A stretch of 63,605 bases of DNA, filler included, from Stramenopiles sp. TOSAG23-6 (GCA_900128565.1; 11 parts of 11 records of this genome joined end to end with filler, not necessarily neighbours in it); one strand, 5' to 3'; positions 2,249 through 50,528 are shown, counted from the first letter of the whole stretch. A program made the numbers and translations. Notes: a model not told the origin generated them from the sequence alone.

Positions 2249-3795
2249 TCATAACTCTTGTTGTTGACGACTACGTGATTTGGGTATCGATTCCAAGTGT
2301 TTGTATGATTCAGTTTTCATAAAAGTTTTCAAATCACTTAGTAGTGTTATATACGGCTTGTGAAAATGTGTGATTCCAGATACTACGCCGCTTTCAGGAT
2401 CCGGAGTACTAGTCACTTGATGCCACCAAATTGCTGGAATATATAGAATATCACCTTCATGTACTTCGCAATTGACAATGCGCGCATTTGAAAATTTAGG
2501 ATATTTCTTAAGATCGGGATTTTCAATATTTACTGGACTAAATGGAGTAAGATTTTTTTCATCGAAAAGAATTTCGTAGAATCGCCCTTCATCATTCATA
2601 TATTTTAGAAAAATATTTCAAAAAAACAAATTAAAATTTGTTAGGTACAAAATTTCGTACTAAAAAAAAAATCGAAATTGAAAAAAGATAAAACATTCAT
2701 GACGTCATTTCCAAGAATATCTTTTTCAAATTCATAAAATCTGTATTGGCTACGAATACTTGAATGTTCATTCGAGAAATAAACTTCTTCATTTTGAGTT
2801 GGGTGAATCAAATTGAAAACTTTTGTACCAGATATAACCACATGAAAATTTTCATAAGCATCATGGTGCAAAGGAGCTTTCACAGGTTGTTCACTAGTCC
2901 ATAATAGCTGATTCTGAAGTAAAAGTTGAGGAGATATCATAGTAGTAATTGCTGGCATTATATCTTCCATTACCTCACCCCATAGAGAAAGTGGATGCTT
3001 TTGTAAATAAACACTCATCTTACGACGTCCTTTGTCGTCAAATTTCTTTGCAATATCGGATAATCGCAAGTAATCTGAAAACGTAATCTCGTTTTCAGCA
3101 GGTCGGTCCATAACGATTTCTTGAGTCTCGAGATGTTTTGCAACCTCATATTCTCCCAAAACATCACCTGGTTTAATTGAAACGATGTATGTCCGCAGAA
3201 GCTTGTGTCCGATTTTTTGGTTTAAATAGGTTTTGTTTTTCCACAGATATTGTGCTTTCCAATCTTTCACTGCACCTGTAATAATAACTGGTTTGCTCTT
3301 CTGAACATACTCCTTGAAAAAGCGATCTTTATTTTCTATAAATGTAGTACTATCTACACGTTCACATTTGGTGTATTTTTTGGACGGCAAGGAGCCAGTA
3401 ATATCTACCAAGTCATCGATGGCAATTGGTTTTTTTTTTGGAAGACTTTGTAGCCAGAGATACTGTAAAACAAGGTTGTATTCATTCAAAGAGCACACAC
3501 CGGGAATTGGTGAATGTGTGAGCAGAGGGGTACTGGCTGTACGATTACACACTTGGTCAGATATTTGATGAGCACTCAGTGATTTGACGTCAATTTCAGC
3601 CACATACCTATCAACTAGTGCTTTCACTTTTGTATTATTCTTGTGCAAAGGATGTAACGCGTGAGGTGGAAAATTTGAGTATTTTTTATCAACTTTGAAA
3701 CGGCGGTTTACAGCATCTTGAAACGAACAAATCGCTCTTCCTACCAATGACAGGAAAATATAGAGAAAAATCACAACGACCGTTGCCAATTTCAT
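2249..3795 (-). CDS. JmjC/cupin-like 2OG-Fe(II) oxygenase with signal peptide, 2 exons
   Basis: KPVIITGA, LHHDAYENFH, EGDILYIPAIWWHQV motifs split over two ORFs joined across intron 2598-2698. Confidence 0.85.
2598..2698 (-). other. Motif-family intron ending in AT (donor GAATGT, or GTTTTA if slid 4 nt)
   Basis: GTACGAAATTTTGTACCTAAC core; removal gives in-frame DV-M-NDE; flanking ATGAATG direct repeat makes the exact register ambiguous. Confidence 0.8.
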
Positions 3796-7655: not shown

Positions 7656-8911
7656 TTCCTGGTTTAACTGAATTAGCATTATGTGGAATTGGGTTACATA
7701 ATGAAGTTAAAACTCATAATTGTAGTCTAGAATTGACCTACGAATTAATTTTGATTCCTCCATTGGTAAACTCAGACATAAAATACAAAACATCAAAAAA
7801 ATCATGAAATATCAAAAAATCATGAAATATCTAAAAATCACGAAATATCTAAAAATCACGAAATATCTAATACGAAATGCATTTCAAATGGAAAGAATGC
7901 AACACAAATTGATGCATATAATGGTATTTCGTATACATATCATATAAAAACAAAATTAATTTTGATTCAAATCATTAGTATTGTATTACCTTCAATTCTC
8001 TGTGAAGACCCTAACCCTAGATGTTCAATACAAAAAAATCAAAAACATCAAAAAAATCAAAAAATACAAGATATTGTAACAAAACTGTCTGAGCGATGTC
8101 ATAGATCACGAAATGAAGTCTGGGGTTCAAGGCCAATTTATTTTGATACAAGTATACAAAACACGAAATCATTCAAAAATACAAAAAATACAAAAAATAC
8201 AAAAAATACAAAAAACATAAAAAATATAAAATTTCAAGATAATTCAACATTTGATCCATGTACGTTTTCATCATGAATTTATTAATTTAATTTTTTTTTT
8301 TGGTTTTTTCGTAAAAAAATTTCGTNCTNACGATANTTTTTTTTTTTGNAAANTTCGGNTTTTTTCACAATACATGGCGTCATCAATGGGTGAAAAATAT
8401 GCGGTCTATAGAAATCGAATGTCGACGTTATTTGGATGGTTTTTACACGAAATCTTCAGATTTCATTGATTCATTTTGTGATTCAATTACAAAAATACTC
8501 GATTCAAATTTTGATTTTGAATGTTTTACAATCTTATCAAAATTTGTTCTAATGGAAAATATTACTCAAGTTGATCATTGGTACTTTTTCATCATGAATT
8601 TATTAATTTAATTTTTTTTTTTTTTTTACATTTCATTATGAATTTTTTTTTTTTTTTACATTCATCATCAATATATATTTTACAATATATTTTAAAACTA
8701 ACAAAAATCAAATATGATATATTTTTTTCACTATTTCCCTCTTTTAGTGATACGTGTCATGAAAAAGATATTTGACCGTATTGATTGGAAAAACACAAAC
8801 CTGCTCNAAAAANGGNCCTNANTTNTTTTTTCAAATGAATTCTTTTCCCTATTTGAAGAAATGGACATCTACAAAAAAATGTTTAGCTATGCAATGCAAA
8901 AAAGAAAGTGA
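7656..8911 (+). CDS. Hypothetical multi-exon protein, 5'-partial
   Basis: Open frame 7656-8259 joins 8376-8580 across a GT-AT intron (FDP-W-RHQW); last acceptor unresolved. Confidence 0.5.
8260..8375 (+). other. GT-AT intron, motif family
   Basis: CCAT|GTACGTTTT...CACAATACAT|GG; frame restored. Confidence 0.75.
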
Positions 8912-9184
8912 ATTATTATTTCAAGAATTTTTGCATAAAGTAGGAAAATAAAAAAAAAAAAAAACCCTAACCCTAATGAAACTATTTTTGAAAAAAAAAT
9001 TCTTGGAAAAAAAAAATTTGTTAGGACATTTTCAAAAAAAAAAAAAAAATGCAAAAAAGAAAGAGAATTCTTATAAAAAATAAAAAAGTTATGTCTACTC
9101 TAACTAACTAACAAATGTTCAAAATCAATTATCTACCATACTTTTGAAAATAAATATGTTTTTATTCTTTTTCAAAATTTAAAA

Positions 9185-11948
9185 TTAATTGTTGATTTGA
9201 ATTTTATCTTTGCAAGTAGTTGAATTATTTGAATTGAACGTTTCACATTGGCACAAACCTGGTTGTGGTAACGGTGGTGATGGCGTTGGAGATGTAATTT
9301 TGCAACAATTTAAATTGGTGTCACTACAATCCGGCAAAGTCCAGTTGAAATCAAACGTTTTTATAAATGACCAAAAATTATTATGAATTTGGTTACAATT
9401 TTGTTGGTCTTGTTGAGTAAATGTGATATTTTGTAGGGTAAACTTTGAAAGTTTACCTAATTTTTGTTGTTCGGTTGGAGTAAAAGATGGCAAACAACCT
9501 GACATGTCTTCTAAGGTCATTTCTTGTAGATGTATTTTGGAAAAATATTTCAAAAAAAAATTCGTTAGGTACGAAATTTTTTTACGAAAAAAAACCAAAA
9601 AAAAAAAAATTCGATTTTTTTGTCAAAAAAAACAAAAATAAAACATACATAATGTGCAAAATGATGTTCGGTGTTGTCAAAGATCATGTCGAAGAATACA
9701 TCAAGGGTGACGTTGGTTGGTGCTTTTATTTTGATATTGTTTACGTGATAAAATCTTGACGATATTATGTAAAGACATATTTTAGGTATATAATTATATT
9801 TCATCATTAGGTACAAATTTCTATGCTATGAAAAACTAAAACTAAAACTAAAAAAAAAAAAATGATATGAAGAATAAAATTGTAAAAAAAGAGATTAGGG
9901 TTAGGTGTAGAGTTTTAGGGTTTATGTGGAAAAAACATACCTGTATTGTCACAAAGAAATCGACGTTGGCCTGATAGTTCTTCCTTACACCACTTCATCA
10001 GATCGTTTGTTGTATTTCCATTTTTTTGTCCTATAGTATCAGGAAACAACCGTTGTAGAACGCTAATCGCATTTTTTTGGTATTTCCCAATCTCTTTCAT
10101 AGTGTTAAGCGTTTTGTTCTGCGCAGTAGTCAATTGTTGTAGTTCGGAATTGTTAAGGTTAAGGTCAAAGCATTGCTGAGTGGCACTGAGCAATTCTTGA
10201 AATTCCCCGAAATCAACTTGAAAATCATCATACAACCGCCGACGTCCAGAAACGTCTTGTAAAGGTGTTGTACTTGTCCATGAGATATCCGTTTGTGGAC
10301 CAGATCCGTCTACACTTGAAGGTGATGCAATCATCGTTCTTCCATCAACTTTAATCTTTTCCTTCTTGCATTTCATATAACATAAACCCAAAATTTCTTT
10401 AGGCCTCTGTTGTAGTTTACAGCCTTGACTGAAAGTGAGCCTTTGATCAACTTGAATATCACCACATTGGTCCGTTACAACACTTTCGTCACCAGGTGAT
10501 TTTGCAGCACATGAAACTCTTAAACTCCCATCGCAAATACTGTAAGGAGAGCCTTCATACACATTTAAAGATGCATAATAAGAAACAGCAGAGGCTCCTG
10601 CAATTACAATTAAATAAAGTACATAAATTAAATATGGAGATCGTATACCACTCTTATACTTCATTATCATTACACTATTCCCAGCATTATAATCAATCAT
10701 ATCCTTCTTACCACTCTTGATAAATTTCAAAACTCTTTCTGCTGCTTCTGTATTTTCATTAATTTCTAAAGCATAATCATTAATACATTTAAATTGGTAT
10801 AAAATTATCATCAATAAGATATTATCATAGGCTAAATTTTCTTGCTTTAGCAGTTTTTCCTTTGAGAAATACACACTGATAAATAATCCACCAAAAACTC
10901 CAATCACCACAATTTGGCGATTCAACATTTGAAACATATTGTGCCATTTACATGTCTCATTCGCTAATGCGTAATGATCTGTGATTAATTTTTCTTCTTT
11001 CTTATGAGTATACTCTCTTGACGACCTCGCTTTTCGTTCATTCTTGTTCAGTGTATGCAACGCTTTGTTGTGCGCATGAGTAAATACTGTATACAATCCC
11101 ATTGAAAGAAGAGAGAGAATCAAGGGAACAAAGAGAAAAAGGGCGTGATATTTAGATGAAGAGCCAAGAAGTACACTAATACAAATGATTATCAGTACTG
11201 ACTTGACGAGGTTTGCGAAGCCATAGAAATGGATTCGCCCCATTTTTTGAATGTCATTTGATAAAACTCTACTCTGATGTGGATCATCTAACTCAATACT
11301 ACTATGAATACAATTTTCCAAAGTAACTTGAAAAAGATTTGACGTTTTGACTAATAGAGATTCCCCCACAAACTCATTCAAGGTGTACAGAAATGCCGCA
11401 ATCATCATGTACACAGTTAAGGGGTATATCTTCACATTTCCTCTAAATTTGTCTGGATATGAACCTGCATATGCTTCGAGGCAAAATGTAATTACACTAA
11501 CAGCCATGATCATTATTATCAATTGAACTTGTAGAGAAAGAAATCCGAGAAGCATGTCACGTATGTTGTACACATTGCACTTGTTTATAATATGTCGTAC
11601 TCTGTATATTATCCAGTGGGGTGGTTTTGCGATTCGTGGAGCCTTTAGTAGTGGTACTAACTTTGGATGGTGGCTGTCTCCTGAGGTACGCGACGACCGA
11701 CGATGTCTTCTGTGTGGAGAATCGCGGTTTGAACGAGATTCGCGACTCAAACTGCGTTCTCTGGGACGACTTGAATCAGGTTGGTCACTCGAGCTTCGTT
11801 CTGTGTAAAAAATAGAATGACGTCCTTGACCGGAGTGAGGTTGTTGTTGTTGATGATGGTGATGATGACGTACGTCAAGTTCAACTTTATCTCCCTCTCC
11901 AACAGCTGCTGCTATTGGATTTTCTTGGTATTCTTCATTGTCCATCAT
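9185..11948 (-). CDS. Multi-pass membrane protein: ABC-transporter-like TM domain plus Cys-rich C-terminal region, 3 exons
   Basis: SRVLSND and AAERVLKFI with several TM helices; exons 11948-9941, 9776-9649, 9529-9185. Confidence 0.6.
9530..9648 (-). other. GT-AT intron, motif family
   Basis: TAT|GTATGTTTT...CGTACCTAAC...AAAATACAT|CTA; FAHY-LQEM. Confidence 0.8.
9777..9940 (-). other. GT-AT intron, divergent family member
   Basis: CAG|GTATGTTTT...GTACCTAAT...AAAATAT|GT; acceptor chosen by frame. Confidence 0.6.
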
Positions 11949-12290
11949 GTTAACAAAATTGCTATATGATGTAGCTTGGGATTACAGAGTATCTTGTGTT
12001 CCTTTAACCTACTTTTGTATGTTGTATGATACGGATTAAAAGTTTTTAACCTTTTTCCAATCTAAATCGTATCTGAAAAATATCTTTGAAACGTATCTTA
12101 CACTATCTTACACTTGAAATTTTGAAATTGCAACCCTAACCCTAACAAAAACGCAACAAAAAATGGATATTTCGTGGTAAACATTCATATGTTACTTTTG
12201 AAATCATCTTGATAGAGATCTATCCTCCTCCTCATTTTTTTTTCAAAGGATACGTTTCTCCAAGATTGATATAACGAAAATCTTCCAACA

Positions 12291-13721: not shown

Positions 13722-13769
13722 AAAATAAAAAAAAAGGGGATTTATTGTTTTTTAAATAAATATTTTTTG

Positions 13770-14923
13770 TTACAAAAAAAGTCCAATAATTAGACATATT
13801 ACAATCAATGAAGCGGACATAAAGACTTTCATTGAATGATGACGAATTTCTATCACAATTTGATCCGTTTCTTTATCCCATAACGTAGACATTTTCATAC
13901 GTAATAAACGACTTTTTTTTGAGTATATGTATCGTATCTCATCATTTTCGCGTTTTGTGTTTTTTTGTTTTGTTTTTTTATCATGTTTTTCATTGCGTGT
14001 TTGTTTTTTTTTGTATCTTGTAAAAACAACGAGAGGTTTCAATGATTCATTATGATTTGTAACTCTCTGAAAGATTTCAGATATATTTTTATCCTGAACG
14101 TATTGCCATTGTTTTATAATGGATTGAAAATATTTTTTAATATATGAAATATTTTTAATTTCGTTTTCAAACTGTTCATCAGAATGTTTGATTTCGTGTT
14201 CAAACGGTCTATCATGATTCATTTGTTGAAAACGTTCAAAATGTTTCGATTCTTGTTTCGATTCTTGTTTCGCTTCTTGACGACTATTTTTAGTACTAAA
14301 TATAAATGCATCTCGTTCTTCATCATTTTTAAATTTCAAAAAAGTATATGTATTTTGGAAAAATATTTAAAAAAATTTTGAAAATTTGTTAGGTACAAAA
14401 TTTTTTTACCAAAAAAAAAAAAAAAAAAAAATTTTTTTTACCGAAAAAAAAAAAAAAACATACATTGATGATCTTTCTTATATTTCTTAATTTTTTTTGC
14501 AAGACAAAAAAAAGCTGCCTTGAGTGTAATCCAACATGCAGTCATCTTCATTGCTTTTAATTTTTCAAAATGACCACCAGATTGTATAACATCCATCAAA
14601 TCATATTTAGATAGACAAATTATTGTTGAATATGTAAGACACGTGGCATTATATAGTCTATTATATGTATTGTGAAAAATATATTTTTTTTTTTTTTTTT
14701 TTAATTTTTTTTTTTGGAATTAAAATTGTTTTTGTTAGGTACAAAATTAACTACGAAAAAATATTTTACTAAAAATAAAAAACATACATGAATCTAAAAC
14801 AATATCTTGACCTAAATACGATCCATTGCGCAACACAGAGCTTCTGTACCCCACCAAACCTTTTTTTATGATATACATATTCTCATTTTTTTCACCATAT
14901 TTTATAAGCTCTTCTAGAGGAGG
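13770..14923 (-). CDS. Cyclic-nucleotide-binding domain protein (ion-channel-like C-terminus), 5'-partial; exons 14923-14788, 14664-14464, 14347-13770
   Basis: Spliced translation PPLEELIKYGEKNENMYIIKKGLV...GSYLGQDIVLDSYNRLYNATCLTYSTIICLSKYDL fits the cNMP-binding pattern; mostly absent from the ORF track. Confidence 0.75.
14348..14463 (-). other. GT-AT intron, motif family
   Basis: CAAT|GTATGT...AAAATACAT|AT; phase 1 restores frame. Confidence 0.8.
14665..14787 (-). other. GT-AT intron, motif family
   Basis: TCAT|GTATGT...CAATACAT|AT; lies inside the cNMP domain. Confidence 0.8.
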
Positions 14924-15211: not shown

Positions 15212-16344
15212 GGGTCCTGCATTTCCTAAATGATTTTGTCTCGATGCAGCAGATAATTCACAATCTGGTGTCTTTCCATTTTTAGTTTCGGTAAATGCAG
15301 TCCAAGTACCTTGGCAAGTTTCCTGTGTAATACCTGCGTCATTACCACCGTTGACACATCGATACATGTATTATGAAAAATATTTTTCAAAAATTTGATT
15401 TTTTTGTTAGATACGAAATTTCCTACGAAATAAAAATTGATTAGAATTAAAAAAAAAAACATACTTTGTTTTTACGTTTCCACTTTCAGACTGATAATAA
15501 TCACACCAATCTGTGTTTGATGTTAGAATAGCGACATCTCTCCATGGTGTCTGTAACCAATATGGGTAATAATCACGTTCTTCGGGGCATTCAAATCCAC
15601 TTCGATTTCCATTCGGATTTTGTCTCGTGAATCTCGCGTCATTTCCGTTAAGATCTTGGTCAGCGACGTAAAGCCCTTTATTTCTTTCAGTATTTTGACA
15701 GGTTTGATACCATGCCAAATTTTCATTCATACCATACTCTGTATCAGTCGCTGTATTTGCACTAATTGTATTTGTGCCATCGTTGTTGTTTCTTTGGAAT
15801 TGTGCCTCTTGATACAGAGGCGCGTTATTATTTCCCTGATTATTTACGTTTTGCAAATTCCCAGATGGATAGCCGTCCCGCAATCCTGGCATTGTATCTT
15901 CACAAGCGTACTGAATTACAAAGTTGCAGTTTGTGGATGGGTTATCTCCGCATGCATGCTGGTTCGTCCACTCCAAGTTCAGAAGAGAACCTTCGTAATA
16001 CTCTGCAGGGTCTGGGGCATTCTGAAGTTCACGATTTCCGCGCCAAGGATATCCTCCTTTAGCCTGTTTAGTAAAGATGATAAAAAATTGCAAGATGTTA
16101 AGTACGTTGGCGTGAAATATTCAATGTATACGTGAGACCATGTGATATATCGTAAAAACATAGTGAAATATGTAGAAATTTGAAGTACATTATTCTGGGA
16201 ATCGAATAGACGGTTGTCATTATTTCGGTTATTGTTTCGTTCACGATTGCGGTTATTTGATCCAGGCGGATTGTGCATATAAACATCTGCTTGACACTTT
16301 ACAACAAGCAAAACGCATACGTAAAATTGTAGAGTAGTCGTCAT
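15212..16344 (-). CDS. Secreted DD3-3-like protein, 3'-partial; exons 16344-16189, 16063-15465, 15365-15212
   Basis: Signal peptide, ADVYMHNPPGSNNR, RLFDSQNN-AKGGY, ECPEERDYYPYW motifs. Confidence 0.75.
15366..15464 (-). other. GT-AT intron, motif family (GTATCTAAC variant)
   Basis: AA|GTATGT...AATACAT|G; KTK-YRCVN. Confidence 0.8.
16064..16188 (-). other. Canonical GT-AG intron without the family motif
   Basis: AAT|GTACTT...TTACTAAACAG|GCT; restores QNN-AKGGY. Confidence 0.85.
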
Positions 16345-22543: not shown

Positions 22544-22696
22544 NNNNNNNNNNNNNNNNNNNNNNNNNNNNNNNNNNNNNNNNNNNNTTAATTAATTAAN
22601 NNNNNNNNNNNNNNNNNNNNNNNNNNNNNNNNNNNNNNNNNNNTACGAAATTTTGTACCTAACGATTTTTTTTTGAAATATTTTTCCAAAATACAT

Positions 22697-26100: not shown

Positions 26101-28653
26101 ACTTTTTAAGTTGCCGAGGCATTAACCATCGTCCCGTCTCATACATGTTCAACAGAGTTTCCATATCCCATCCTTTTGGTATATGTTTTCTCCATAAAGG
26201 TCCATGTGTGATATAATCCAGAACAAGAAGTTGCTCAGCTGTTTTTGGTAGTCCATCGAGAACAAAACCCAAAGGAAATTCTGGAACTTTCCCTGATAGA
26301 TCTTCACATTTCTTTTCACTTTTGGTTGAAATATCGTTGGCTATAGTAATAGCGAGCATGATTTTTTGAGCAGCAGCTTTTGCAATTAATATATTAGCAT
26401 AGATTGAATTATTTTGTTCTGTTATGGGATTCTCTTGTGAAGGATCTTGTGCCAACTCGTAAATTTTATGCAATAACATAGAATACTCTTCTTGAGGAGA
26501 TGGAACTGGAATAGACGGGGGTGTCTCTTCAATTAACCAAAGACCTCGATCAAATGGTTTTAGGCTTTCCCATGCAGATCTTTTTTTATGCCATTCATTT
26601 GCTTGTGTTTCGGTCGTCTTGCAAATTTCATCCCACTTAGTTTGCCAGGTGGAATATGTCGATTCATTAGCCTGAGCTTCTTTAACAATATCTTCTGGTG
26701 TTATTATAGCTAATCTGTGTTTAAGCGCAAGTGTATTTGCAAGTGTTGTTTTTCCACTGAGAGGAGGACCTACGAGTGAAATAACACATGGAGATCTTGG
26801 TGTCTGGAGCATTTTGTTTGTAAGAGGCCAACTGCAGCGCAATGCCCCTTCAAGTTCTCGAAAGACTTTACTTACATTTGGTAGTTCCGAGTTTTCACGA
26901 TCCGTGGTGCTTTCTTTTAGAGCCCATTTTCCATGACAATCAAGTAATTCTTGGACGTCTACATCATCAGAAGCATTTGCAACCATGTCTGTTGTACCTT
27001 TTTCGAGTAAAGGTGCTCCAAGATCATCCAACTGTAATGGTCGATCAGCAACAAAATCGGCTTTATATTCACGCCAGAAGGAAGGTGGCATTTTCTCTCG
27101 ATTATTATTTTCTCGATAATCAACCACCTTGAGTGCGAGATCAGTTAATGTACCCACAATAGCTGTACAAATATCATTATGTTGCTCGTGTCTCTGTTTA
27201 AGTCTTAAACGGTCAATTTCCGCCACTCGCTCAAAATTAGCTATTCGACGTGGTTCATCATCCACTCGCTTCTTCTCATATAATATAGAATCTTTTCCCA
27301 TTTGTATTTGAAATTCATCAAGTCTATTATTTCGACATTCTTCAGCGTGCTGCTTTGCTCTTTCTATAGATTTTGCTTTGATTCGACTATACGCCCAACG
27401 TTGTTGTGATTCCTCGCGTTCTGCTTTCGCTTCACGTGCAATACGAAGCAAGCGATCATGTATTTTGGAAAAATATTTCAAAAAAAATATAGTTAGGTAC
27501 AAAATTCCGTACGAAAAAAAAATCGAATTTGAAAAAAAGTAAAACATACACTACTCATTCGTTTTTCTTCCGCCAGTTTCTGTTCAACGAGTTGCTCCGC
27601 TTGTACACGTCTCTGTCGCGTCTGTTTCTCTCTTCGAGACACTTCATCAATTTGTCGTGATTGATGCAAAGCTTCTATATATTTTGAAGAGTGTTTTGCA
27701 AATTTCGCAGTTGATGATTTTGTCATTGACTCTAAACGTTTCATATGTTCTAGGGGAGTTCCTTGATTCGTTTTTGCAAGAGTATTCAAATCTTTGATCC
27801 CCTCGGTTGAATTACCTCTAAATCCAAGTCGTTTTAATTGTTTCTCGAAATTATCAACACCCATTTTGAGTTCTTGTTCACAGTGATGGCGTTTAATTAT
27901 GTCTTTACGTCGAGATTTTTCAACCATACTAAGTTCAAAACGAAGTTCTTTCCGTTCACGATTTCGTTTTATTATTTGAGTTTCTTTCCACCGTTTTTGG
28001 GCATTTTCTTCAAATTCTTTTTTTTCTTTACGATGAAGTAAATTACGTTTGATACGCTCTTTTTTCTTTTGTATAATAATTTCAGCCTCTTTTTCACGAA
28101 TTAACTTGTCCTCTGCGTCTATTTCATTCTGACGGTTTCGTTCAGTATCAAAAAATTGTTTGACATGAACTTTTTCTCTCATTTGTTTCTTATTCAAATG
28201 ATATGTAGTTGAGTAAAATCTTTCATCGTCTGTCATTGGAACAGTTTTTGGTTTCTCCTCCTCATTATTTTCAATCTTTTGTGACGACTTCAAATCTTTG
28301 ACGTTTTCGTTCACACCAATCATCCGTCTCAAAAGGCCATCCGATTGTATTTTGATTTCTGCTAATAACTTTGCAGCACAACCTCGTTTTTGAATCATTA
28401 TACTCTGTCGTTTCTTCTGAGATAGATTTATTGCAAGATTTTTAAAGCCAAGCTCACAAACTTTAAAATTATTTATCTTTGCCCCAGCTGTGTTTTTTCG
28501 AATGAGTTTACTCAAGGTAATAGTTTGACCTAACTTTTGAAGTAGTTCACCAAACAAATATCCATTTGCAAACTGCTCATCTATATCTGTTGCAACTATT
28601 CTAACAGAAAGCTGAATGTCTTTATTCAGCCATTTAGTCAATAGGTCAGACAT
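23186..28653 (-). CDS. SPEF2: SPEF2/CPC1-like flagellar central-pair protein, 2 exons
   Basis: N-terminal CH-like FANGYLFGELL...KINNF, coiled coil, adenylate-kinase-like GPPLSGKT...GFVLDGLP, C-terminal EF-hand-like region. Confidence 0.75.
27458..27549 (-). other. GT-AT intron, motif family
   Basis: AGT|GTATGTTTT...AAAATACAT|GAT; joins 386-aa and 1453-aa ORFs in phase 0. Confidence 0.85.
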
Positions 28654-30515: not shown

Positions 30516-31434
30516 TTAAGAATCAGATCGATTTCTTCTTCTTCTTCGGGAAGTATTTTTTCTCTGATTTGAATTTTGATTTGAATACTCCTTAGCTTCA
30601 TCATTTGAATGTATTCCAACACTTGGTTCATCATTTGAATGTTCATTTGAATGTACTCGACTTCCATTCTCATTGCGACTCACTTCAGGCACAGTATCAT
30701 TAAACTTTAATTCCTTTTGTTTTCCTATTTCATATTTTTTAATGGTTGGAGGGAAATTTGTCTTTCCTCTACCTGCAGCAATTTCTTCTTTCAAATACAA
30801 ATTTCTCTGTTGCTCCTCTTTTGCTAATTCAGAGGTCAATTCTTGGAATAATTCGTCAAAATTCCAAACAACATCTTCCTCCTGTATTTTGGAAAAATAT
30901 TTCAAAAAAAATCGTTAGGTATAAAATTTCGTAAAAAAAAAAACATAAATTTGAAATTAAAAAAATAAAACATACCTTTATCCTTGTCTGAGGAATGAGT
31001 ACACTGGTTAAGAGACTTATATCCACTCCTGAATTTCCTGTAGGGAGAGAATATCTAATATCTTGATCTAATTCTTTCATACTTTGAATGCGAAGTGAAC
31101 GTATTTTAGGTGCTTCCGCAATAGTTGTAAGCTCAGCTTCCTCTTCCTCCTCTTCTAACACGGGAATAACCAAAATGTTATCATCTGAATCCGACCCACC
31201 TTGCCCAAAATGTTTATCGTTGCTGCTTCGACCTCGTTGACGTGCACCTCGTTTATTCTTTTTTGAAGCACTCTTTGCTACTGCGAGTGGGGACCTTTTT
31301 GAATCTTCACCCCAACCTGATTTCCGAGGTTCATTATTATCTTTTGAGTCAAAAGGAGTATCTGAATTTGAGCTCGTGCTTGGTGATGGTGATCTTCTTC
31401 GACGTCTACGCCTTGGTTTCTCACGCTCAGGCAT
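30516..31434 (-). CDS. IFT43: Intraflagellar transport protein 43, 2 exons
   Basis: SGWG, IPVLEE, ELDQD, VDISLLT...EEDVVWNFDELFQELTSE. Confidence 0.85.
30882..30975 (-). other. Motif-family intron with canonical GT-AG ends
   Basis: AAG|GTATGTTTT...TACCTAAC...AAAATACAG|GAG. Confidence 0.9.
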
Positions 31435-31685: not shown

Positions 31686-32484
31686 ATGTTTTTACGTTCG
31701 CTGGTAATGATAGTAATGGCTATAAGCTACGGAAGTTTTCTTATTATTCCTCAGGCTTCTGGTTTGAGCTTGGATGCACAAGTTACACAACAGTTAGAGT
31801 GTGATATGTGTACCCGAGTCACACAAATAGTAGAAGGAACACTAATGAAAAACGCAACTGCAACAGAAACGTTTCAGAGAGTGGCTCAAGCTCTCTGCAT
31901 CCATCTTCCAGAAAATATTATTCCAATATGTCGCCAAGGTGCTCATCTTCTTACTACTCCTGTTTTTAAATGTATGGTTCAAGCTGTGGAATTTGGTTCA
32001 ATTTGTAACGACTCTTCCATCAAATTGTGCTTCGCGGAGCGACCATCGACGCAAGATCCTAGCCTTAAATGTTCATCGATGCAACCATCTGTACTTTCTT
32101 GTGCGGCATGCGAATTTGCAATATCCTCTTTACAACAGTATGTAGCAAGCGCCACGGATATTATAGCAAAGGGCGCAAGAACAGATGTACTTTTCAAAAT
32201 TGAATTAGTATTTTTTTTCGAACCAAAATTTGTACCTAACAAAAAATTTGAAAGTAAAATATTTTTTCACAATACATATCTGTGGCTTTCACTTTAAAGG
32301 AGAAATGGCCCAGAAAAAGTGTAAAGTACTCATGGACACTTATGGCGCTACAATGCTAAAAGTGGCCGCATCACGAATAAGTGCAAAGTCATTTTGTTGT
32401 GAACTTGGTCTATGTAATACGGGATTAGAAGATGATGGTAAGATTGTTACTAATAAGGGTTACACTAGCCCTATTCCAATGTAG
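31686..32484 (+). CDS. Secreted protein with two saposin-B-like domains, 2 exons
   Basis: Signal peptide; CDMC...C...C...IC..LC and CAAC...IC...C...FCCELGLC. Confidence 0.8.
32187..32277 (+). other. GT-AT intron, motif family
   Basis: GAT|GTACTTTT...TGTACCTAAC...CAATACAT|ATCTGT; restores saposin Cys spacing. Confidence 0.85.
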
Positions 32485-34742: not shown

Positions 34743-37512
34743 TCAAGTTTTGTATTTTATCTGCATTCCATCAATAATTTCATCCTCTGCTTCAGAATTC
34801 AACTTTCTAGCCTGCGCAACCAGTGAAGTGACTGCCGTACTACTCTTTTTTGACTTTTCTGGTATAAAAAAAGACTTTGGACGAGGTTTAATGGTTGGTG
34901 GTTGACGTTTTTTTGGACTTCGATTCTCAAATCCATTGGGTAGCATCATTCTTAACATGTCAATGTATATTGGGTCAAGTAAATCTTTACCTGTACGAAG
35001 TAGTACACCGAGTGATGGTCCGAGATGATCCCAACCAATATCACTAAGACCTGTACTTGTGAGAGCTTGGCAGTTATTCAGCAACGCAATGGCTACTTCT
35101 TCTAACTGTTCAGGATGCCATAAAGTTTTTGCATTTGCTTCAGCATCGACACGTTGGCAAATCTTCGCTACAAGACTTGCGATAAATTCATCTTTCATCT
35201 GCTCAGAACACGTTGGAATATATCGACCTAAATTTCGTAGTACATCAATGACAACTTTATGTGATGGGTCTTGTGTCAGTCGTAAAAGTTCCTCTTTTAG
35301 CTTTGGTTTCATAGGCTTATAAGGTTCATTCGAATCGTATGACATTGTCAAAACAATTACAGCCTTGACGCTGCTTTTACGGACTTCGGTATCTTTATCT
35401 CTACAAAGGATGTGTAATGATGGCATGACTTTTGTCTCTTGATCTTTATCGGAAACCACGGGTGCAACAACCGCAAGCAATAAAGTAACTTTTACACGTA
35501 CAGCTGTAGATGGATGTGCTGCAATATCACTTAATACAGATAATAATTGTTGTGCTGTAGCACTATCACTAGACAAATCCATAAACACCTTTTCTACTAC
35601 AGGGTATTGACGAGAACGCCAACCATTATTTTCTAAAGCAACACCCACAAGAGTATCCGCAATAAATCGTTTGATATAAACATGTGGTAACTCAACTAGA
35701 ACAGCACGTGTATACACTGGGAGAATTCTTTCTAATAAAAGATCTTTTTCGCGAATTTCAATTTCACCGCCCGATTGATTGTGAACTCGATTTGGTCCCA
35801 TCAAACTGGTATCACTGAGTACAGCTGCTTTACGTGCAGCCGTTGATGCAGCTTGCCACCATTCACAGCGCAATGTTTCATTAGGAATAGAATTTTCATT
35901 TCGGCCTAATATGGAAAGAAATGCGGCGGATGGTTTCCTCTTCTCTTGACCCTCCAACATTCCCATTGTTGCAAGAAATAAAGGACGTACAACGTTAAGT
36001 GTAAAAGATTCTCCAAAACTATGACAAAAACTACGAAACACTTTCACAAAACATAATTGATGTCTCTTAGAATCACCAGACTCAGATGTATTTTGTGAAA
36101 ACATATTTCAAAAAAAAATGATTAGGTACAAAATTTTCATAGTAAAAACAAAAGTGAGATGNATAATGAAAACGTATAGACAACATAAATACAATAACAA
36201 ATTAGGAAGCACAAGTTGGCAAATGCTACGAAATTCTGGCCATTCCAATGCATCCAAAGTTCCAATATTTTCAATATTCGATGCAATCATGTTTTTGGTG
36301 TCTAATCGGAATACAACATCAACTGCCGATATTTCACTATTATAGCCTAATTTCTTAGCTGCGCGAAATATCCAGCCTGGTGCATTATCTAAAGAAAATA
36401 TTTTCTTTTTAAGAATCGGAGCAGCGGTTGTCAATGCATATAATAAGTGGTCAAGCTTTAATGTTTTTTTTTTTAATTTATACGCAACTGTTGTGCTTAA
36501 AATATAGTCATCTTCCGATTTACTTTCAGTCAACAAATCTATGCAAGAAGACAAGTTCACTTCGGTCTTTGAATCCATTGTATTTCTAATTTGAGTCAGT
36601 AAAACTTCAACAATACCTTCATGATTAAAAATAGTACCATAAGAATAGAAAAATATTTCAAAAAAAAAAAACTAAAATTTGTTAGGTACAAAAATTTTTT
36701 ACCAAAAAAAAAAATTCAATTTTAAATTGAAAAACAAATAAAACATACATTCAATTTTAATTTATTTAGAAAATAAAACATACATTTACATTCTGATATT
36801 CTATCAGAAGAGGAAGAATATTTTCAATGGCTATCTGGGGTATTTCTTCTACATCTGAGAGAAGTGTCAGAAATAATTCACCAAGTATTTTAGTAAAATG
36901 CATTTTACAGTACTTTTGAATATTCTTATTACTGTCTAAAACTTCTAAGTCTATTTTGTGAACTAGTGTAGATTTGTGTAATACTGTTTTTAGTAATGAA
37001 CTTAGTGCTTCCAATGCAGCTTTTCGAACTTGTAATGATTTTTCAATCCTATGTGAGCACATAGTCACTAAACTTGGTACTAACTCACTAAATACAACAA
37101 TTGGATCACATGAAGGAATAATCGCAAGCGCAAGTGATGCAGCCTGAATTCTACGCTCTCGAAAGCGTTCCTTACATTGTTGGCTTATCGCGACGATAAT
37201 TTCCTCAGAGGTCCGTTTTCTACCAATTACTCCTGATAGATTTGATATTCTTGTACATAACTCATTGCGTTCATACTCATTCGGTCGTGGGATCAAGGAA
37301 ATTAAAGATTTGATTAAACCTAATGAAACTTTTTCTCCTTGAGGCATAAGAGCAATACAACGAACTAGAAGTGGGGCCAGTGAAGATCTTTCGCTGATGA
37401 CCATTCCTGATACTAGACTAGGCAATTGTTGAGATAAGAAAAGAATTAATTCTGTTTCTCTACTTTGTGTAAATTTCGTGTATTCTTCTGACGTATCTCT
37501 ACAATTCAGTTT
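34743..37512 (-). CDS. HEAT-repeat protein, RELCH/KIAA1468-like, 5'-partial, at least 3 exons
   Basis: LAPLLV...LISLIPRPNEYER...IGRKRTSEEII...ERR resembles RELCH from recall; downstream HEAT repeats. Confidence 0.65.
36088..36177 (-). other. Motif-family intron best read as AT-AC
   Basis: CT|ATACGTTTT...GTACCTAAT...AAAATAC|A; flanking ORFs share a frame, so the length must be 3n. Confidence 0.6.
36639..36783 (-). other. GT-AT intron, motif family, with a duplicated internal donor at 36748
   Basis: AAT|GTATGTTTT...TTCTTAT|GGT; phase 0 restores frame. Confidence 0.75.
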
Positions 37513-38023: not shown

Positions 38024-39438
38024 ATGGTTCTTAGAGGTTCGGTAACGAAGCCTGATGTTGGTGTAAAGGAAGTTTTACGGAAGTCCAGTGATGCAATTAT
38101 CGAACGTAAGGCTAAGGAAGCTGCTTTTCATATAGAGTCGGAAGCGTTATGGACCCGCTTAGAAAAAACAGCGGAGAATCAACAGGAATTAACACAGGCG
38201 GAACTTTATTCCTTAATTCATCGCCTACATTCACGAATCCAGTTGTTGGAGGATGAAAGAATTGCCGCTGAAAAGTATGCGGAAGAACAATATGCCGATG
38301 TCACCCGTGTTTTCAAGCAGCTACTCTGCGGCGGTCTCGCCGGTTGTGTAGCTCGAAGTTGTGTAGCACCAATTGATAGAACGAAGATTCTTTTACAGAC
38401 TCAAGCATTGACATTTGCTAACGAGGGTAAAGTTAGTGGACCAAAGTATCGGGGAATATTCCATACATGGCGTGTTATAATCAAGGAGGAAGGATTCAAA
38501 AAGTTATGGCGTGGAAACGGAGTTAATTGCATACGTGTAGCTCCGTATGCCGCTACTCAATTTGCTTCCTATGACTTTTACAAATCTTTAATATCTAGTA
38601 ATGAAAATCTTACAATCCCCAAACGTTTATTATGTGGTGCATTAGCTGGTGCAACTGCTACAACAATAACACACCCTCTAGATGTTATTCGGCTTAGATT
38701 AGCAGTATGTTTTATTCTTTTTCAAATTCGAATTTTTTTTTCGTACGAAATTTTGTACCTAACGAATTTTTTTTTAAATATTTTTCCAAAAAACATGTTA
38801 CACCAAGTCTTGATGGTTTTCAGGATGCATTACGTCACGTAGTCAAGGAAAATGGATTTCGTTCCTTATACAAAGGTTATGTACCCACATTACTTTCATT
38901 GTCTCCATTTATAGCGATTAATTTCTCCGCGTTTGATATTTTCAAAAGGATTGCCTATCCTGAAGGTCCATCTGGAGGTTGGTCAGCCCATGTACGTTTT
39001 CAACATTCATTTTTTTTTCAATTTTTTTTAGTACGAAAATTTGTACCTAACGAATTTTTTTTCGTACAAAAATATATATTTTTTTCATTTTTTTTTTCAT
39101 ACGAAATTTTGTACCTAACGATTTTTGTACTACAAACATTTTTTTTCACAAAACATCCTTTTCTTACTTTAACTTTGGGTGGTTGTGCAGGTCTTGTTGC
39201 ACAAAGCTGTTGCTATCCACTAGATACTGTCCGACGACGAATGCAATTACCTGGTACGCATTATAAATCTGTGTGCGATGCTTTTGCTACTATACCAAAG
39301 AAAGAAGGGATAAGAGGTTTATACAAGGGTATGCTGCCAAATGCGGTAAAGATTGTACCTAATAATGGAATTCGTTTCTTGGCATATCAGTTTTTTAAAG
39401 ATATTTTTGGTGCAGAAAAGAAAAAATATGAAAAATAG
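38024..39438 (+). CDS. Mitochondrial carrier (SLC25) protein, 3 exons
   Basis: Three Px[DE]xx[KR] motifs: PIDRTK, PLDVIR, PLDTVR. Confidence 0.92.
38705..38796 (+). other. GT-AT intron, motif family
   Basis: GCA|GTATGTTTT...AAAAACAT|GTT; RLRLA-VTPSL. Confidence 0.85.
38992..39156 (+). other. GT-AT intron, 165 nt, in-frame and stop-free, with two copies of the motif
   Basis: CAT|GTACGTTTT...AAAACAT|CCT; removes a poly-Phe insert from carrier repeat 3. Confidence 0.8.
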
Positions 39439-40311: not shown

Positions 40312-40714
40312 TTATTACGATTTTGTTGAAAGCCTTTCGCAGAAGTCCAAGAAACAGAATCAGAGTTCGTATTCGTAATACGTGATTGTGGTGATTGTGT
40401 CTTTTCTTTGTGCAAGCAATTGGCTTTTGGCCAAAGAGATTTGCTTTTTCGGAGGTTTTCTAACCACGACGTCGACGTGTTCACATTTTTAAGTCCTACA
40501 CAGTTATATTTTTGATAATTTTTTTTTATTACTTTTATGAGTAGAAAAAATATGAAAATTAGTTTTTTAAAGATATTTTTGATGCAGAAAAGAAAACAAA
40601 TGAAAATATATACATAGAGTATAGCATACATAAATTATAATATCTAAATAATGATAATAAATGAAACATACAATTTATTTATTTTTTCGTACGAAATATC
40701 GTACCTAACATTTT

Positions 40715-41480
40715 TTATAACGAAATATCCGAATTCCAAGTAGTATCATTATGAATACATATCTTTGTCGTAGCATAATTTTCTATAGCTTCCTCCACAG
40801 TCCACTGGCGTTTCCCCAAGTGAGCACTGACATTATTATGCATGTATTGTGAAAAAAATGTCAAATTTGAAATTTATTAGATACCCCAAAAAAACCTTTT
40901 GACTTTCATATGGAGAAAAAATAAATAATTTCAAGATGAAAACGTACATTTTTACTATAAACGAGCGTAATCGTATACGCGAGGAACATGCTAAATCTAG
41001 ATCAATATCCTTCAAGTATTCCTTTAGATGGTATCCACAATCACCACATGGTAACATATATGGAAGACTTACAAAAAATGTTTTGCAGTGATCAATATGA
41101 GCCATGTCTGGCTTGTCACTAAAATTTGCAGCCATTGTATGAAGTAAATTCCATGCAACAGGACCCCAAGCTATTGGCTCAGCACTAACAACAGAAGTAC
41201 ATGTCTTCGCCCCTCGCTGAAGGGCACTACCTATTTCAGAACTACCCGTAGCCGACAGTGCAATATCATTTGACGCAGGTAAACATACCCTGGCCGAGTT
41301 GTCTTTTCTATTTGCGTTTTTTGAGCTACGCAGTGCGAGTGTGTCATATCCTGGACTAGACCAAAGCCACGCAATTCTTATAAATAATATAAGAGTACAC
41401 ACAAGAGCACCATACTTTAATTTTACATACTTTTGGGTCATTCGTTTTGAATTATCCATCGTTGCTTGAGAATATATCAT
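40715..41480 (-). CDS. Erv1/Alr-family sulfhydryl oxidase with N-terminal TM anchor, 2 exons
   Basis: WGPVAWNLLH, LPCGDC, and spliced KMHNNVS. Confidence 0.85.
40842..40947 (-). other. GT-AT intron (GTATCTAAT variant)
   Basis: AT|GTACGTTTT...CAATACAT|G; restores the HNxV motif. Confidence 0.85.
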
Positions 41481-41812: not shown

Positions 41813-43256
41813 ATGCCTCGTGGAGTGAAAGCGGTATCCGCCACCAAAAGTAAACAAAAGGCAACAAAGAAGACTCGGAAAAAAACTGCGGCTGATGTAA
41901 TAACAAAAAAAAAAGCACGAAGAAAAAAAACAAACAAACCAAAGATTTCTTCTTCCCTTTCCCACAAAACGCTGGTAGACGATTTGAAGCACGTTCGAGA
42001 TTTTGCTATTACGCTTAGACATAAAGCAAAGTTTTATTTACCACCCACACTCCCAGAACTTGGTATCTTTGACGCAAAAGAAGTTATTCAAAAATCTCCA
42101 TCAAAAATGCTCGATGAGATTGATTGCCTCATATCAAGTTTACTCTCAACGGTACTTGGTGGAGGAAGTTTACATTTACGTATACCAAGTCGAAGTGCAT
42201 CCAACCAAGTATACGTCAAAGAATTGCATCGGATTGTTTTAAAAAGTAAATTTCTCGTTCGTAATTTTGACTCCGTCGCAGGTTGTCGAAAAATGGCCAT
42301 TATGATACGTGTTCTAGAACTGATGTATCAAGTACTCACTAAAGGTATTCACATTACAAAGCGTGATCTTTTCTATACTGATGTAAAACTATTCAAAAAG
42401 CAAGAAGAATCTGATGGTGTTCTTGATGACATTGCTTGTGTATTGGGCTCTACTAGAACGTATGTTTTATTTTTTTTTGAATTTCGAATTTATTTTTTTT
42501 CGTACGAAATTTTGTACCTAACAATTTTTTTTTTTTTTTTTTTGAAATATTTTTTCACAATACATGTGTCTCGGAGTCGTTGCATCCGAGAAGGGCGTTG
42601 TTGTTGGTAGAATTAGTTTCAAAGAAGCAGGCGATGTCATTGACTGTACTAAAATGGGCGTATCAGGGAAAGCTGTACCTGCATATATAGATCGACTCAC
42701 TGATTTAAAATCAGATGCAGAGTTTGTACTTTTGATTGAGAAAGATGCTGCGTATATGCGGTTAGCTGAGGATCGTTTTTATAATAAATACCCATGTATT
42801 CTTATTACCGCAAAAGGACAACCGGATGTCGCTACTCGTCTATTTCTAAGAAAAATACACGATGAATTACATTTACCAATATTAGGCTTATTTGATGCAG
42901 ATCCTTATGGTCTGAAAATTCTCTCTGTGTATGGTGCTGGTTCTCGAAGTATGAGTTATGATAGTGCTAGTCTTGCTACACCAGGGATAAAGTGGTTAGG
43001 TGTTAGACCGTCAGACTTGAATAAATATAACATTCCAGAGCAATGCAGACTTCCAATGACAGATGCAGATATTAAAGCTGGAAAAGATATGTTAGAAGAT
43101 CCATTAATATCATCCAATCCGGCTTGGCATAAAGAATTAAAACTAATGGTCAAATCAAAGATGAAGGCAGAAATTCAGGCTTTATCAGCGTTTGGCTTTC
43201 AATATTTGACTGAAGAATATTTACCACGTAAAATTCGAGAGGGTGATTGGATATGA
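41813..43256 (+). CDS. TOP6A: DNA topoisomerase VI subunit A (SPO11-3 type), 2 exons
   Basis: [37 protein letters not shown]. Confidence 0.92.
42460..42565 (+). other. GT-AT intron, motif family
   Basis: AC|GTATGTTTT...CAATACAT|G; gives [15 protein letters not shown], colinear with the family pattern GCTRSSLxVVASEKG. Confidence 0.9.
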
Positions 43257-49500: not shown

Positions 49501-50528
49501 TTTTCAATTTGTTTTTCATTTTTTTTTCATAGTAAATTTTGTACCTAACAAAATATACAAAAAATACAAAACAATTAAAAATATTTCATCAAAATACATG
49601 TCATGAATCAAGCANCAAACGTCATTTTTAACCCAGAAGAAAGTTCACACTCAAATAATCCACTTCGAAATCTTCTCATTCATACTTTACGAAGACAAGA
49701 AATAATTGCATTTAGTGATGTTCATGAAAATGCAAAAAACGCAAAAAACGCAAAAAACGCAAAAAACGCAAAAAACGCAAAATTTCGTGTAGATAAAACA
49801 TCTCAAAAATTTCAAAAATCTGTTGTTTATANTAATCGCGATNATGACAAATTAATGGCTTTTGCTATGAGTTTATTTAATCGTTNGAAGACAATTAGAT
49901 TTGAGTTGCATACAAACGATCCTGCTANACATGTAAGTTAACCCTAACCCTAAACCCTAACCCTAAAGTTTTTCAACATGAATTTAAAAAAAAATGTTGA
50001 AAATATAGAGAAGATTTTTTTGTTTTTTTGTTTTTGTAGCAAATTTTGTACCTAACGAATTCTACATTTGGTATACTTTTTCATACCACATGAAGTTCGC
50101 ATGATATTAAGGGAATCTTATGATAAGACAATTGTACGTTTACATCATTTATTTAACTTTTACAGTTGTCTTTTACACAATTGAATTGATTTAACTATTT
50201 TTTTTTNACTTTTTNATCTATANTTTTTTTTTTACATTTCATATGAAATTTTGTACCTAACAAAAAAACACATAATTTGACATATTTTCATCTGTATAGA
50301 ATTTCAAATCGGTTTTTGAGCTTCCAAAAGACAATGCTACAGTGGACGCTTTAAAGGAGTACGTAACAAAAAATCAAAAAAAAAAATATTTTTCTAAAAT
50401 TTTAAATTTTTTTTTCATACGAAATTTTGTACCTAACAAAAAATCAAAAAAAAAATATTTTTCTACAATACATGTTAGGGTATTTCATTCCTCACTTAAA
50501 GAAACAAGATGCTTGGCAAATGCACCAT
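46521..50528 (+). CDS. Pol-beta-type nucleotidyltransferase (PAP/TUTase-like) with repeats, coiled coil and a multi-exon tail
   Basis: IYGS.ATGL..EGSDVDL, VDI, GTMGSY, IQDP...N; introns 49038-49148 (AG), 49470-49599 (AT), 49933-50091 (AT), 50134-50299 (AG), 50359-50473 (AT); final exon unresolved. Confidence 0.7.

Follow-up and report, generated by a model that had tools for sequence, protein, structure and literature searches.

The window analysed here, a stretch of 63,605 nt of DNA from Stramenopiles sp. TOSAG23-6 (GCA_900128565.1), contains on its minus strand, at 9530-9648, an intron of 119 nt that belongs, as a whole and not with its ends alone, to a multi-copy repeat family. We regard it, with a probability of about 0.8, as one copy of a high-copy, non-autonomous introner inserted in many unrelated genes. 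Introners themselves are already known; what is new is an introner family carrying a non-canonical AT acceptor. An initial annotation of this DNA had pointed to the partial complementarity of the intron ends and their frequent AT...AT flanks, and had proposed either an origin as an introner or miniature inverted-repeat transposable element (MITE) or a definition of the splice sites by pairing of the two ends. The introner origin is strongly supported, chiefly by a whole-intron repeat family with precise splice-site boundaries. The window sequence is eukaryotic and AT-rich (25-39% G+C in 2-kb steps), with long open frames dense on both strands.

The exon-intron reading of the 119-nt intron is cattat|GTATGTTTTATTTTTG...GAAATATTTTTCCAAAATACAT|ctacaag, its ends being GTATGTTTT (5') and CCAAAATACAT (3'), and in the frame test its excision fuses open frames of 59 and 114 codons in phase 0. 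The same phase is required by the gene's other family intron (9777..9940, minus strand), a diverged copy reading AG|GTATG...AAAATAT|GT with CCCTAA-like repeats in its 5' part: this intron lies in phase 1, the exon separating the two introns (9649..9776, minus strand) measures 128 nt, and the phase chain therefore demands phase 0 at 9648-9530, as observed. The 5' splice site GTATGTTTT (9640..9648, minus strand) coincides with the first bases of the element, and in an alignment of 17 copies the columns G1, A3, G5 and T6 vary little or not at all. Conservation in this alignment is highest in the core CGTA(A/C)GAAATTT(T/C)GTACCTAACGA (9562..9586, minus strand), within which CTAAC (9564-9568, minus strand) is a putative branch site. 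The 3' block GAAATATTTTTCCAAAATACAT (9530..9551, minus strand) terminates in the non-canonical AT acceptor. Similarity to other copies begins or ends precisely at 9530, both in blastn and in the oriented copies, and metatranscriptome contigs part from the window at 9529/9530 into unlike flanks (18 of them at 9530 and 5 at 9529; the flank agreement at 9530 is 0.43-0.62).

A blastn search of the window with the intron as query gave 23 non-self matches (E<=2e-8), the majority of which start at query base 11, i.e. at 9530, the last intron base. The best of them (14344-14465) shows 82% identity over 131 nt and marks the closest full-length relative of the flagged intron (14348..14463, minus strand), which also passes the frame test. 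A profile built from 7 copies found 36 matches at E<=0.01 in the window and one built from 17 copies found 32 at E<=1e-3; the flagged intron matches the family profile over its full length. Copies share the architecture GTATGTTTTAT-(T)n-CAAATTCGAAT-(T)n-CGTACGAAATTTTGTACCTAACGA-(T)n-GAAATATTTTTCCAAAATACAT|exon, and family similarity ends exactly at the splice sites. They measure 90-166 nt, are non-coding, lie nearly all in sense orientation in genes, and have a median identity of 73% over all pairs. The most alike pair, 93% identical over 91 nt, is formed by the copies in the SPEF2 gene (27458..27549, minus strand; GT|GTATG...ACAT|GA) and in an SLC25 carrier gene (38705..38796, plus strand; CA|GTATG...ACAT|GT). 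These hosts are as unrelated as the others, which include IFT43, TOP6A, a Cupin_8/JmjC-like gene, a saposin-like gene and several genes without a Pfam match. The enrichment of the terminal motifs noticed at the outset held up, with GTATGTTT occurring 22 times in the window against 4.24 expected and AAAATACAT 16 times against 2.65, levels reached by 0/100 shuffles in either case, while the looser AAAACAT is barely enriched (56 against 43.2 expected; 2/100 shuffles reach it). Four of the 16 AAAATACAT matches sit outside the curated introns in a periodic array (37701-37837, plus strand), where their spacing of 32, 32 and 64 nt suggests a tandem array bearing the element's 3' motif.

Removal of the unit restores reading frames. 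For ten full copies the ends were set from the family alignment before the frame test, which each would pass by chance in 1/3 of cases; in 10/10 the excision of everything from G1 to the T of the final AT (to the G of AG in IFT43) joined the longest flanking frames. In the SLC25 gene the resulting junction reads RLRLA|VTPSLDG and corresponds residue by residue to the relatives P0001-P0003, which have RLRLAVTPEL, RLRLVVQPEL and RVRLATQTEL at that place. Seawater metatranscriptomes of three studies contain sequences with 90-99% likeness to parts of the window. One metatranscriptome contig of 211 nt, from poly(A) RNA of seawater, consists of 14264-14349 and 14472-14590 with 6 unplaced letters; it skips 116 nt, the length of the copy at 14348-14463, which is the sole copy with direct RNA evidence. 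For 9530-9648 itself no bridging contig was present among those shown (8830-15009 compared), the uncovered parts of this interval being uninformative. The contig joints 9650>14348 and 14758>14934 look like repeat-mediated mis-joins and were not used.

Splice boundaries were tabulated for 23 curated introns. Left out of this set were the copies at 14787-147xx (3' end unclear), 15211 (3' end in N) and 45286-45212 (downstream frame cut by the contig end), and six 3'-only copies at contig ends. GT opens 20/23 introns (the remaining three have GA, GG and AC), and AT closes 20/23, with AG at the end of the three others (IFT43 at 30975-30882, 49038-49148 and 50134-50299). On this reading, AT is a routine 3' splice dinucleotide in this organism, with AG in the minority. 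Position -3 of the intron is a pyrimidine in all 23; a YAY triplet (CAT or TAT) closes 20/23 introns, and CAT, TAT or CAC precedes 9/23 donors. The motif GTACCTAAC is exact in 18/23, and all curated introns carry a motif of this type, its branch A lying 24-51 nt (median 37) from the 3' end. We take CTAAC to be the branch site from its likeness to the yeast UACUAAC consensus. Judged by their sequence, the GTATGT donor, the GTACCTAAC motif and the intervening U tracts look like signals of the major type. An Rfam search found no RNA family and no small nuclear RNA (snRNA) gene in the window. Between the branch motif and the 3' site that is used, 2-9 AT dinucleotides and 0-7 YAT triplets are skipped; the use of the first AT or the first YAT past the branch point was rejected as a rule for the 3' site, failing in 23/23 and 22/23 introns, respectively.

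The exon sequences around the introns are biased as well. AT precedes the donor in 14/23, compared with 9.07% of 18,517 exon dinucleotides (binomial p=9.4e-10), which bears out the initial annotation on this point; so do the AG...AG flanks of the IFT43 intron, read as AG|GTA...ACAG|, and the exon ends it had listed as counter-examples, i.e. AC in TOP6A, GT in SPEF2, CA in SLC25 and AA in the gene at 15464. The downstream exon begins with G in 14/23 (p=2.4e-5) and with GT in 7/23 (background 5.15%; p=1.1e-4). This flank composition suggests a pre-insertion site of the form (A)T|G(T). The suggestion that the flanks represent a 2-bp target-site duplication (TSD) fared unevenly: 15/23 introns fit it (14 AT/AT and 1 AG/AG), but exon and intron ends match no more often within introns than between them (by permutation, p=0.35 at position -1 and p=1.0 at -2; Fisher tests p=0.25 for AG/AG and p=0.54 for AT/AT). 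Since 20/23 ends are AT, these tests have almost no power, hence the label "ambiguous", which also follows the criterion described in PMC9860276, by which a TSD and a target preference are indistinguishable when a within-intron excess is lacking. Among the counter-examples are one intron reading AT|...AG| (49038-49148) and one reading AG|...AT| (9940-9777). Two other duplications were considered and rejected: a 4-bp "ATGT" providing both splice sites, not retained as the main model because the most similar copies (SPEF2 GT|...|GA and SLC25 CA|...|GT) lack the full repeat, and a TA-type (Tc1/mariner) duplication with TGTAT...ATACA ends, which the flanks do not fit.

Introns without an upstream AT tend to repeat the first bases of the element downstream. 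This is seen for GT at 38705 (gca|GTATG...ACAT|GTtac), 42460, 9940 and 50359 and for GTAT at 15464, and the SPEF2 intron repeats T|G across the junction. Counted over both sides, junction microhomology reaches at least 2 nt in 20/23 introns against 17.0 expected when exon contexts are shuffled (P=0.014 in 5000 shuffles, a value obtained from 23 hand-curated introns in one among several tests); it stays below 2 nt in two copies that end in AG and in a diverged GTAAGT copy. This either/or flank pattern covers all four counter-examples of the first description. The joined ends of the element, ...ATACAT|GTATG..., form a 10-nt palindrome, ATACATGTAT, and the pattern is what integration via a short match to the joined unit ends would give.

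These observations can be brought together in a scheme in which an element of 92-120 nt would insert into unrelated protein-coding genes and be tolerated there because it brings complete splicing signals, namely a 5' GTATGT donor, U tracts, a YAT 3' end and, some 37 nt before that end, an GTACCTAAC branch region. A major-type (U2-like) spliceosome would then cut out exactly G1 to the final T of ...ACAT and restore the frame. The AT...AT arrangement would be an insertion-site signature at the DNA level and not a product of RNA pairing, the pre-insertion site being (A)T|G(T) with at least 2 nt at one or both junction sides repeating the element ends. As to how the element enters, cut-and-paste with a 2-bp TSD is possible but doubtful, and we judge in the same way a route without TSD, e.g. 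spliceosome-mediated, with a preference for AT|GT targets. It is rather unlikely that a circular form recombines via at least 2 nt of microhomology to its ACAT|GTAT junction, and something else altogether seems no likelier than that. The circular route, for introners without transposon hallmarks, might nevertheless be spelled out, at the same low odds: an excised intron circle with a palindromic junction would enter targets sharing at least 2 nt with it, be it AT at the left side of the junction, GT at its right side or T|G over it, which would explain the AT...AT cases together with all four counter-examples. As the element ends in AT and not AG, 3' bases derived from the element and from the target can be told apart, so that the mechanism is testable from sequence alone.

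Copies and fragments at unusual places bear on the extent of the family. Copies account for only about 5% of the window sequence, yet 7/20 contig ends abut truncated ones, namely the severed copy at 22644..22696 (plus strand) and those adjoining N at 7583, 14998, 15112, 30065, 37578 and 45089. Since assemblies break at repeats, contig ends inside copies point to many more copies elsewhere in the genome. A partial copy lies antisense to an Erv1-like gene (40672..40740, plus strand), overlapping its last codons and 3' end, and is not an intron. Further, a 31-nt family core stands antisense to a host open reading frame (48935..48981, minus strand) with a perfect 8-bp direct repeat, ATCAAGAT, on both sides; insert and one repeat together measure 39 nt and add 13 codons in frame, so this may be the footprint of a DNA-level insertion of the core alone. 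Neither of the two is a full copy, and both hint at DNA-level events. Another repeat, of about 150 bp and 94-100% identical between its copies (39419-39585 and 40543-40686), lies downstream of two minus-strand genes, and its second copy adjoins the antisense partial introner.

Several points weigh against the introner reading. Beyond the ten copies described above, 12 further introns pass the frame test, which gives 22/23 by the automatic test, but for 9940-9777 and 61027-60931 the AT was picked from two candidates by frame, so that those two tests are not independent. The intron at 50529-50667 fails the automatic longest-frame test, although it appears to pass when the frame is carried through the exons 50092-50133, 50300-50358 and 50474-50528. 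RNA support comes from a single metatranscriptome contig with 90-99% likeness, possibly from a related strain. The summed RNA contig depth speaks for a high copy number, being far above that of the flanking exons for the intron pieces at 9448-9653 and 14598-15009; in four seawater RNA libraries it amounts to 2277, 189, 1921 and 0 for the bin holding the flagged intron and to <=7 for most exon bins, but these sums take in all contigs, including low-complexity A/T runs, and hence express multiplicity and not a count. The high intron depth could stem from unspliced RNA of many loci, DNA carry-over or stable excised intron RNA. No real copy emerged outside the window in searches of JGI metagenome contigs (core 19-mer, 3 loci), GTDB (17-mer, 31) and IMG/VR (17-mer, 6), where all 40 seeded loci fit the profile over the seeded core only, at <=22 bits, i.e. 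as chance matches. Among the 55 open reading frames of the window that were scanned, none gave a family match to a transposase or reverse transcriptase. The first 40 nt of the copies resemble the reverse complement of their last 40 nt no more than composition shuffles do (11/11 copies, p=0.19-0.98), and a terminal inverted repeat (TIR) of at least 6 nt was not found in them. To these come the lack of a within-intron excess of TSD-type matching and the near-total sense orientation in introns, which is compatible with spread at the RNA level or with selection no less than with DNA transposition. Finally, the curated set was gathered via the family itself, so the family's share among all introns is not derivable from it, and at least one intron region, in an FAA-hydrolase gene (about 5644-5850, plus strand), lacks the family core. 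This region possibly contains a micro-exon coding for GGQW; its boundaries are not fixed, and it was excluded from all counts.

If the family has been mobile, as we suppose, its spread might be that of a classical MITE or might have taken place at the level of RNA. The former would be a GTATG...ATAC element with short inverted ends that moves by cut-and-paste and creates a 2-bp TSD, the 3' copy of which (AT, sometimes AG) serves as acceptor, with the corollary that only exon insertions at AT or AG would survive. We regard both the model and its corollary as questionable. The same dinucleotide stands before the donor and at the intron end in 15/23 (14 AT/AT, and AG/AG in IFT43), the consensus ends GTAT...ATAC are complementary, copies exist outside introns, contigs break within copies, and TSDs co-opted as splice sites are described for other introners (PMC9860276, PMC11282704). 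However, 8/23 mismatch, among them the most similar and presumably youngest pair (SPEF2 GT/AT and SLC25 CA/AT) and the introns with AT|...AG| at 49038 and AG|...AT| at 9940; matching shows no within-intron excess and no TIR is significant. Moreover, five of the eight mismatches repeat GT downstream (9940, 15464, 38705, 42460 and 50359) and a sixth (SPEF2) repeats T|G, which an element with fixed ends and a TSD does not predict. The complementarity of the ends, which the initial annotation had described as an imperfect inverted repeat, is indeed present in the consensus (GTAT(G)TTT against AAA(A)ATAC) but is short and does not exceed shuffles. Spread without TSD at the level of RNA or the spliceosome, in which a lariat or a 3'-5' circle would be reverse-spliced at AT|GT-like sites or a circular copy would recombine, has somewhat more in its favour and is held tentatively, at less than even odds. 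The presumed mobile unit coincides exactly with what is spliced out in every full copy, nearly all copies have the sense orientation in genes, their length is small (90-166 nt) and they code for nothing, microhomology stands on either side of the junction in 20/23 (P=0.014), and the joined ends are palindromic; short introners without transposon hallmarks and intron circles made by the spliceosome have been described (PMC10996645). On the other hand, that P value was obtained on 23 introns curated by hand, in one test among several, the AG end of the IFT43 copy matches the upstream exon, so that a self-contained unit would need a later T-to-G change, and the antisense partial copy and the core flanked by 8-bp repeats point to events at the DNA level.

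Three further explanations address the conserved ends and signals themselves. According to one, the ends pair in the RNA, 5' GUAUGUUUU with 3' AAAAUAC, are thereby brought together and select the correct AU, a mechanism that has been proposed for the nonconventional introns of euglenids and for the introners of Amoebophrya. Since many ATs and YATs are skipped past the branch point before the used site, something beyond "AT" must mark the 3' site, and the consensus ends do form 4+2 pairs (GUAU/AUAC and UU/AA), with 78% of cells paired against 25-59% when the 3' partner is slid; the GUAU/AUAC helix is part of the minimum-energy fold in 2/6 copies. Yet none of the 6 pairs is changed on both sides, 500/500 shuffles pair as well as the copies do, pair 4 is lost uncompensated in the GTACG subtype, RNAalifold yields -0.18 kcal/mol with one 4-pair local stem and no terminal helix, and six single-copy folds have z-scores of -2.4 to +1.2. 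In addition, GUAUGU must stay free for pairing with snRNA. With neither covariation nor a consensus terminal helix, the proposal that 5'-3' pairing chooses the correct AT is not supported, and we consider it very improbable. No more credible is the idea that these are not mobile elements but ordinary old introns that are alike because the organism requires unusually long and strict signals for splicing, as do Ostreococcus and intron-poor yeasts. The best-conserved blocks do include the donor, the branch-like CTAAC and the 3' end, and a motif of the GTACCTAAC type occurs in all curated introns at a similar distance from the 3' end. But conserved blocks of about 20 nt have no known signal role (CAAATTCGAAT, CGTACGAAATTTT, GAAATATTTTTCC), full-length identity reaches 93%, the assembly breaks inside copies, fragments exist outside introns, and at least one intron region does without the core. 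Least probable of all is that the copies are U12-type introns, spliced by the minor spliceosome, a class known for its tolerance of odd 3' dinucleotides. The U12 consensus is GTATCCTTT at the donor and TCCTTAAC at the branch site; GTATGTTTT resembles the former at 7/9 positions and ACCTAAC resembles the latter. U12 introns have an RTATCCTT donor, no pyrimidine tract and a branch site some 10-26 nt before the 3' end, but the diagnostic CC at +5/+6 does not occur in the family, which has GT there in the 17-copy alignment, and the family branch motif keeps a distance of 24-51 nt (median 37) to the 3' end, the space between being occupied by U tracts. Rare GT-AT introns of the minor type are mentioned in PMC1557818.

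The remaining members of the family are described here. Four copies whose boundaries pass the frame test are those in IFT43 (30882..30975, minus strand), with AG before the donor and an ACAG end, in TOP6A (42460..42565, plus strand; AC|GTATG...ACAT|GT), at 44011..44102 (minus strand), which begins with GGATG and reads AT|...ACAT|, and at 44803..44894 (minus strand), of the GTACG...CATAATCTAT subtype; the same holds for 15366..15464 (minus strand; AA|GTATG...ACAT|GTAT). Other copies lie in the Cupin_8 (JmjC-like) gene (2598..2698, minus strand), with boundaries that can be slid by up to 7 nt, at 8260..8375 (plus strand; CCAT|GTACG...ACAT|), in the saposin-like gene (32187..32277, plus strand) and at 49470..49599 (plus strand; AT|GTATG...ACAT|GT). 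Duplications have occurred within copies: the second SLC25 intron (38992..39156, plus strand) has a tandemly duplicated core, and the copy at 36639..36783 (minus strand) a 35-nt duplication of its 5' end, GTATGTTTT included. The copy at 36086..36177 (minus strand) has A instead of G as its first base, and 90 of its 92 nt are removed; it is probably best read as an AT-AC intron (36088-36177) that begins with the AT of the upstream exon, while the 3' AT stays in the mRNA. Two copies have diverged, one with an AG acceptor (49038..49148, plus strand; AT|GTACG...TATAG|) and one without junction microhomology (60931..61027, minus strand; AC|GTAAG...GTACAT|AT). Four successive family introns (49933-50091, 50134-50299, 50359-50473 and 50529-50667, plus strand) are separated by exons of 42, 59 and 55 nt. 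Telomere-like CCCTAA/TTAGGG repeats are found in the 5' parts of three family introns, at 9880-9925 (minus strand), 49485-49500 and 49940-49970 (both plus strand), and also between genes at 8900-8930, 45640-45660 and 50835-50850; they may mark a subfamily with captured telomeric repeats.

The window itself is a composite. Its gaps consist of 44 N, TTAATTAATTAA and another 44 N, are located at 7467-7566, 15010-15109, 22544-22643, 30065-30164, 37578-37677, 45089-45188, 52584-52683, 60070-60169, 61250-61349 and 62428-62527, and have a spacing that falls slowly from about 7543 nt. From these regular, linker-type gaps it follows that the window is a chain of separate contigs whose neighbours are not physically linked; apparently the pieces were ordered by size and joined by a six-frame stop linker. 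The contig at 52684-60069 is an inverted duplicate of itself and looks like an amplification or assembly chimera, with the same Pfam results in 52690-54001 (minus strand) and 58752-60068 (plus strand) and in 54101-54877 (minus strand) and 57876-58652 (plus strand), and the same donor contexts at 55164 (minus strand) and 57589 (plus strand). An open frame of 1908 codons (16816-22542, minus strand) has no Pfam match at E<=0.001.

The host of these introns is probably a stramenopile, as far as protein likeness can tell. The window encodes a true TOP6A. Its Toprim exon has 66-76% identity to the TOP6A of plants, dinoflagellates and stramenopiles, with 76% to Lagenidium (an oomycete), 74% to Symbiodinium, 71% to Triparma, 69% to Ectocarpus and about 70% to plants, and the gene groups with eukaryotic Topo VI A clusters in a protein atlas. 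Animals are not known to possess TOP6A, and the relatives of this gene therefore speak against a tunicate or any other animal as host. The named relatives of the SLC25 exon come from fungi and plants (34-40% identity).

Bursts of intron gain are at present best explained by introners, and it is unsettled how short ones without transposon hallmarks move and how far the spliceosome bends to accommodate them. Routine use of a 3' AT has so far been documented mainly in Fritillaria tunicates, where it coincides with a duplication of U2AF (PMC13326754). A second, independent lineage that pairs invading elements with a relaxed 3' site would suggest that this is a general outcome. The introner surveys PMC9860276 (Gozashti et al. 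2022) and PMC12130899 (2025) describe families with and without TSDs and TIRs, all arrangements of splice site and TSD, and an enrichment in marine organisms. Both surveys start from annotated introns, and in PMC12130899 AG or AC were accepted as 3' sites while families with unfamiliar sites were inspected or discarded; a GT-AT family would therefore probably be missed. This is a blind spot of practical importance, as predictors and surveys expecting AG or AC acceptors would mis-annotate such genes and overlook such families. At the scale of a whole genome, the flanks of the family may discriminate between insertion mechanisms. We found no description of a GT-AT introner family in the literature on introners and on non-canonical splicing in stramenopiles; the supplementary family tables of the surveys may hold cases.

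Non-canonical, MITE-derived introns of the larvacean Fritillaria were reportedly described by Henriet et al. in 2019, and they resemble the present family in the 3' splice site. In this genus 3' AT, a major acceptor, accounts for 34% in F. borealis and 44% in F. pellucida (PMC13326754), the introns close with a YAY triplet that often recurs just 5' of the donor (PMC13326754, PMC11282704), and the introns are attributed to MITE insertion with an exon repeat forming the 3' site (PMC11282704). Likewise, AT is the major acceptor here, and YAY is found at 20/23 intron ends and before 9/23 donors. The donor, however, is GT in 20/23 introns with a conserved GTATGT, whereas F. borealis has mostly AG, and a Fritillaria-type predominance of non-GT donors (AG/AC and AG/AT classes) was not seen among the 23 introns. 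Furthermore, one sequence family dominates here, and the host is a protist and not a larvacean tunicate.

Among protists, the introners known from Micromonas, Aureococcus, Chrysochromulina, Florenciella and Symbiodinium (PMC9860276, PMC12130899) resemble the present family in that one short non-coding element occurs in unrelated genes. As described for introners of marine protists, excision leaves the mRNA length intact, the host lives in the sea, the splice sites coincide with the element ends or adjoin them, and a short direct repeat stands at the junction. In contrast to the introners surveyed, the 3' end is AT in 20/23 and not AG, no TIR is significant and the TSD is ambiguous. The parasitic dinoflagellate Amoebophrya (PMC7789003) likewise lives in the sea and is rich in non-canonical introns; part of these are repeated elements, and direct repeats overlap their boundaries with the exons. 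Its elements have hairpin-forming inverted repeats of 8-20 nt, direct repeats of 3-5 nt and highly variable termini (PMC7789003), whereas here the termini are uniformly of the GT...AT type, inverted repeats are not significant and the branch and U-tract signals look canonical. Finally, short introners and introner-like elements, such as some families of Micromonas and those of fungi (PMC10996645, PMC9860276), are also shorter than 200 nt, non-coding and biased towards genes and the sense orientation, with a unit equal to the intron. According to these sources they use GT-AG, which sets them apart from the family in this window with its GT-AT termini, its clear AT|G flank bias and its fragments outside introns.

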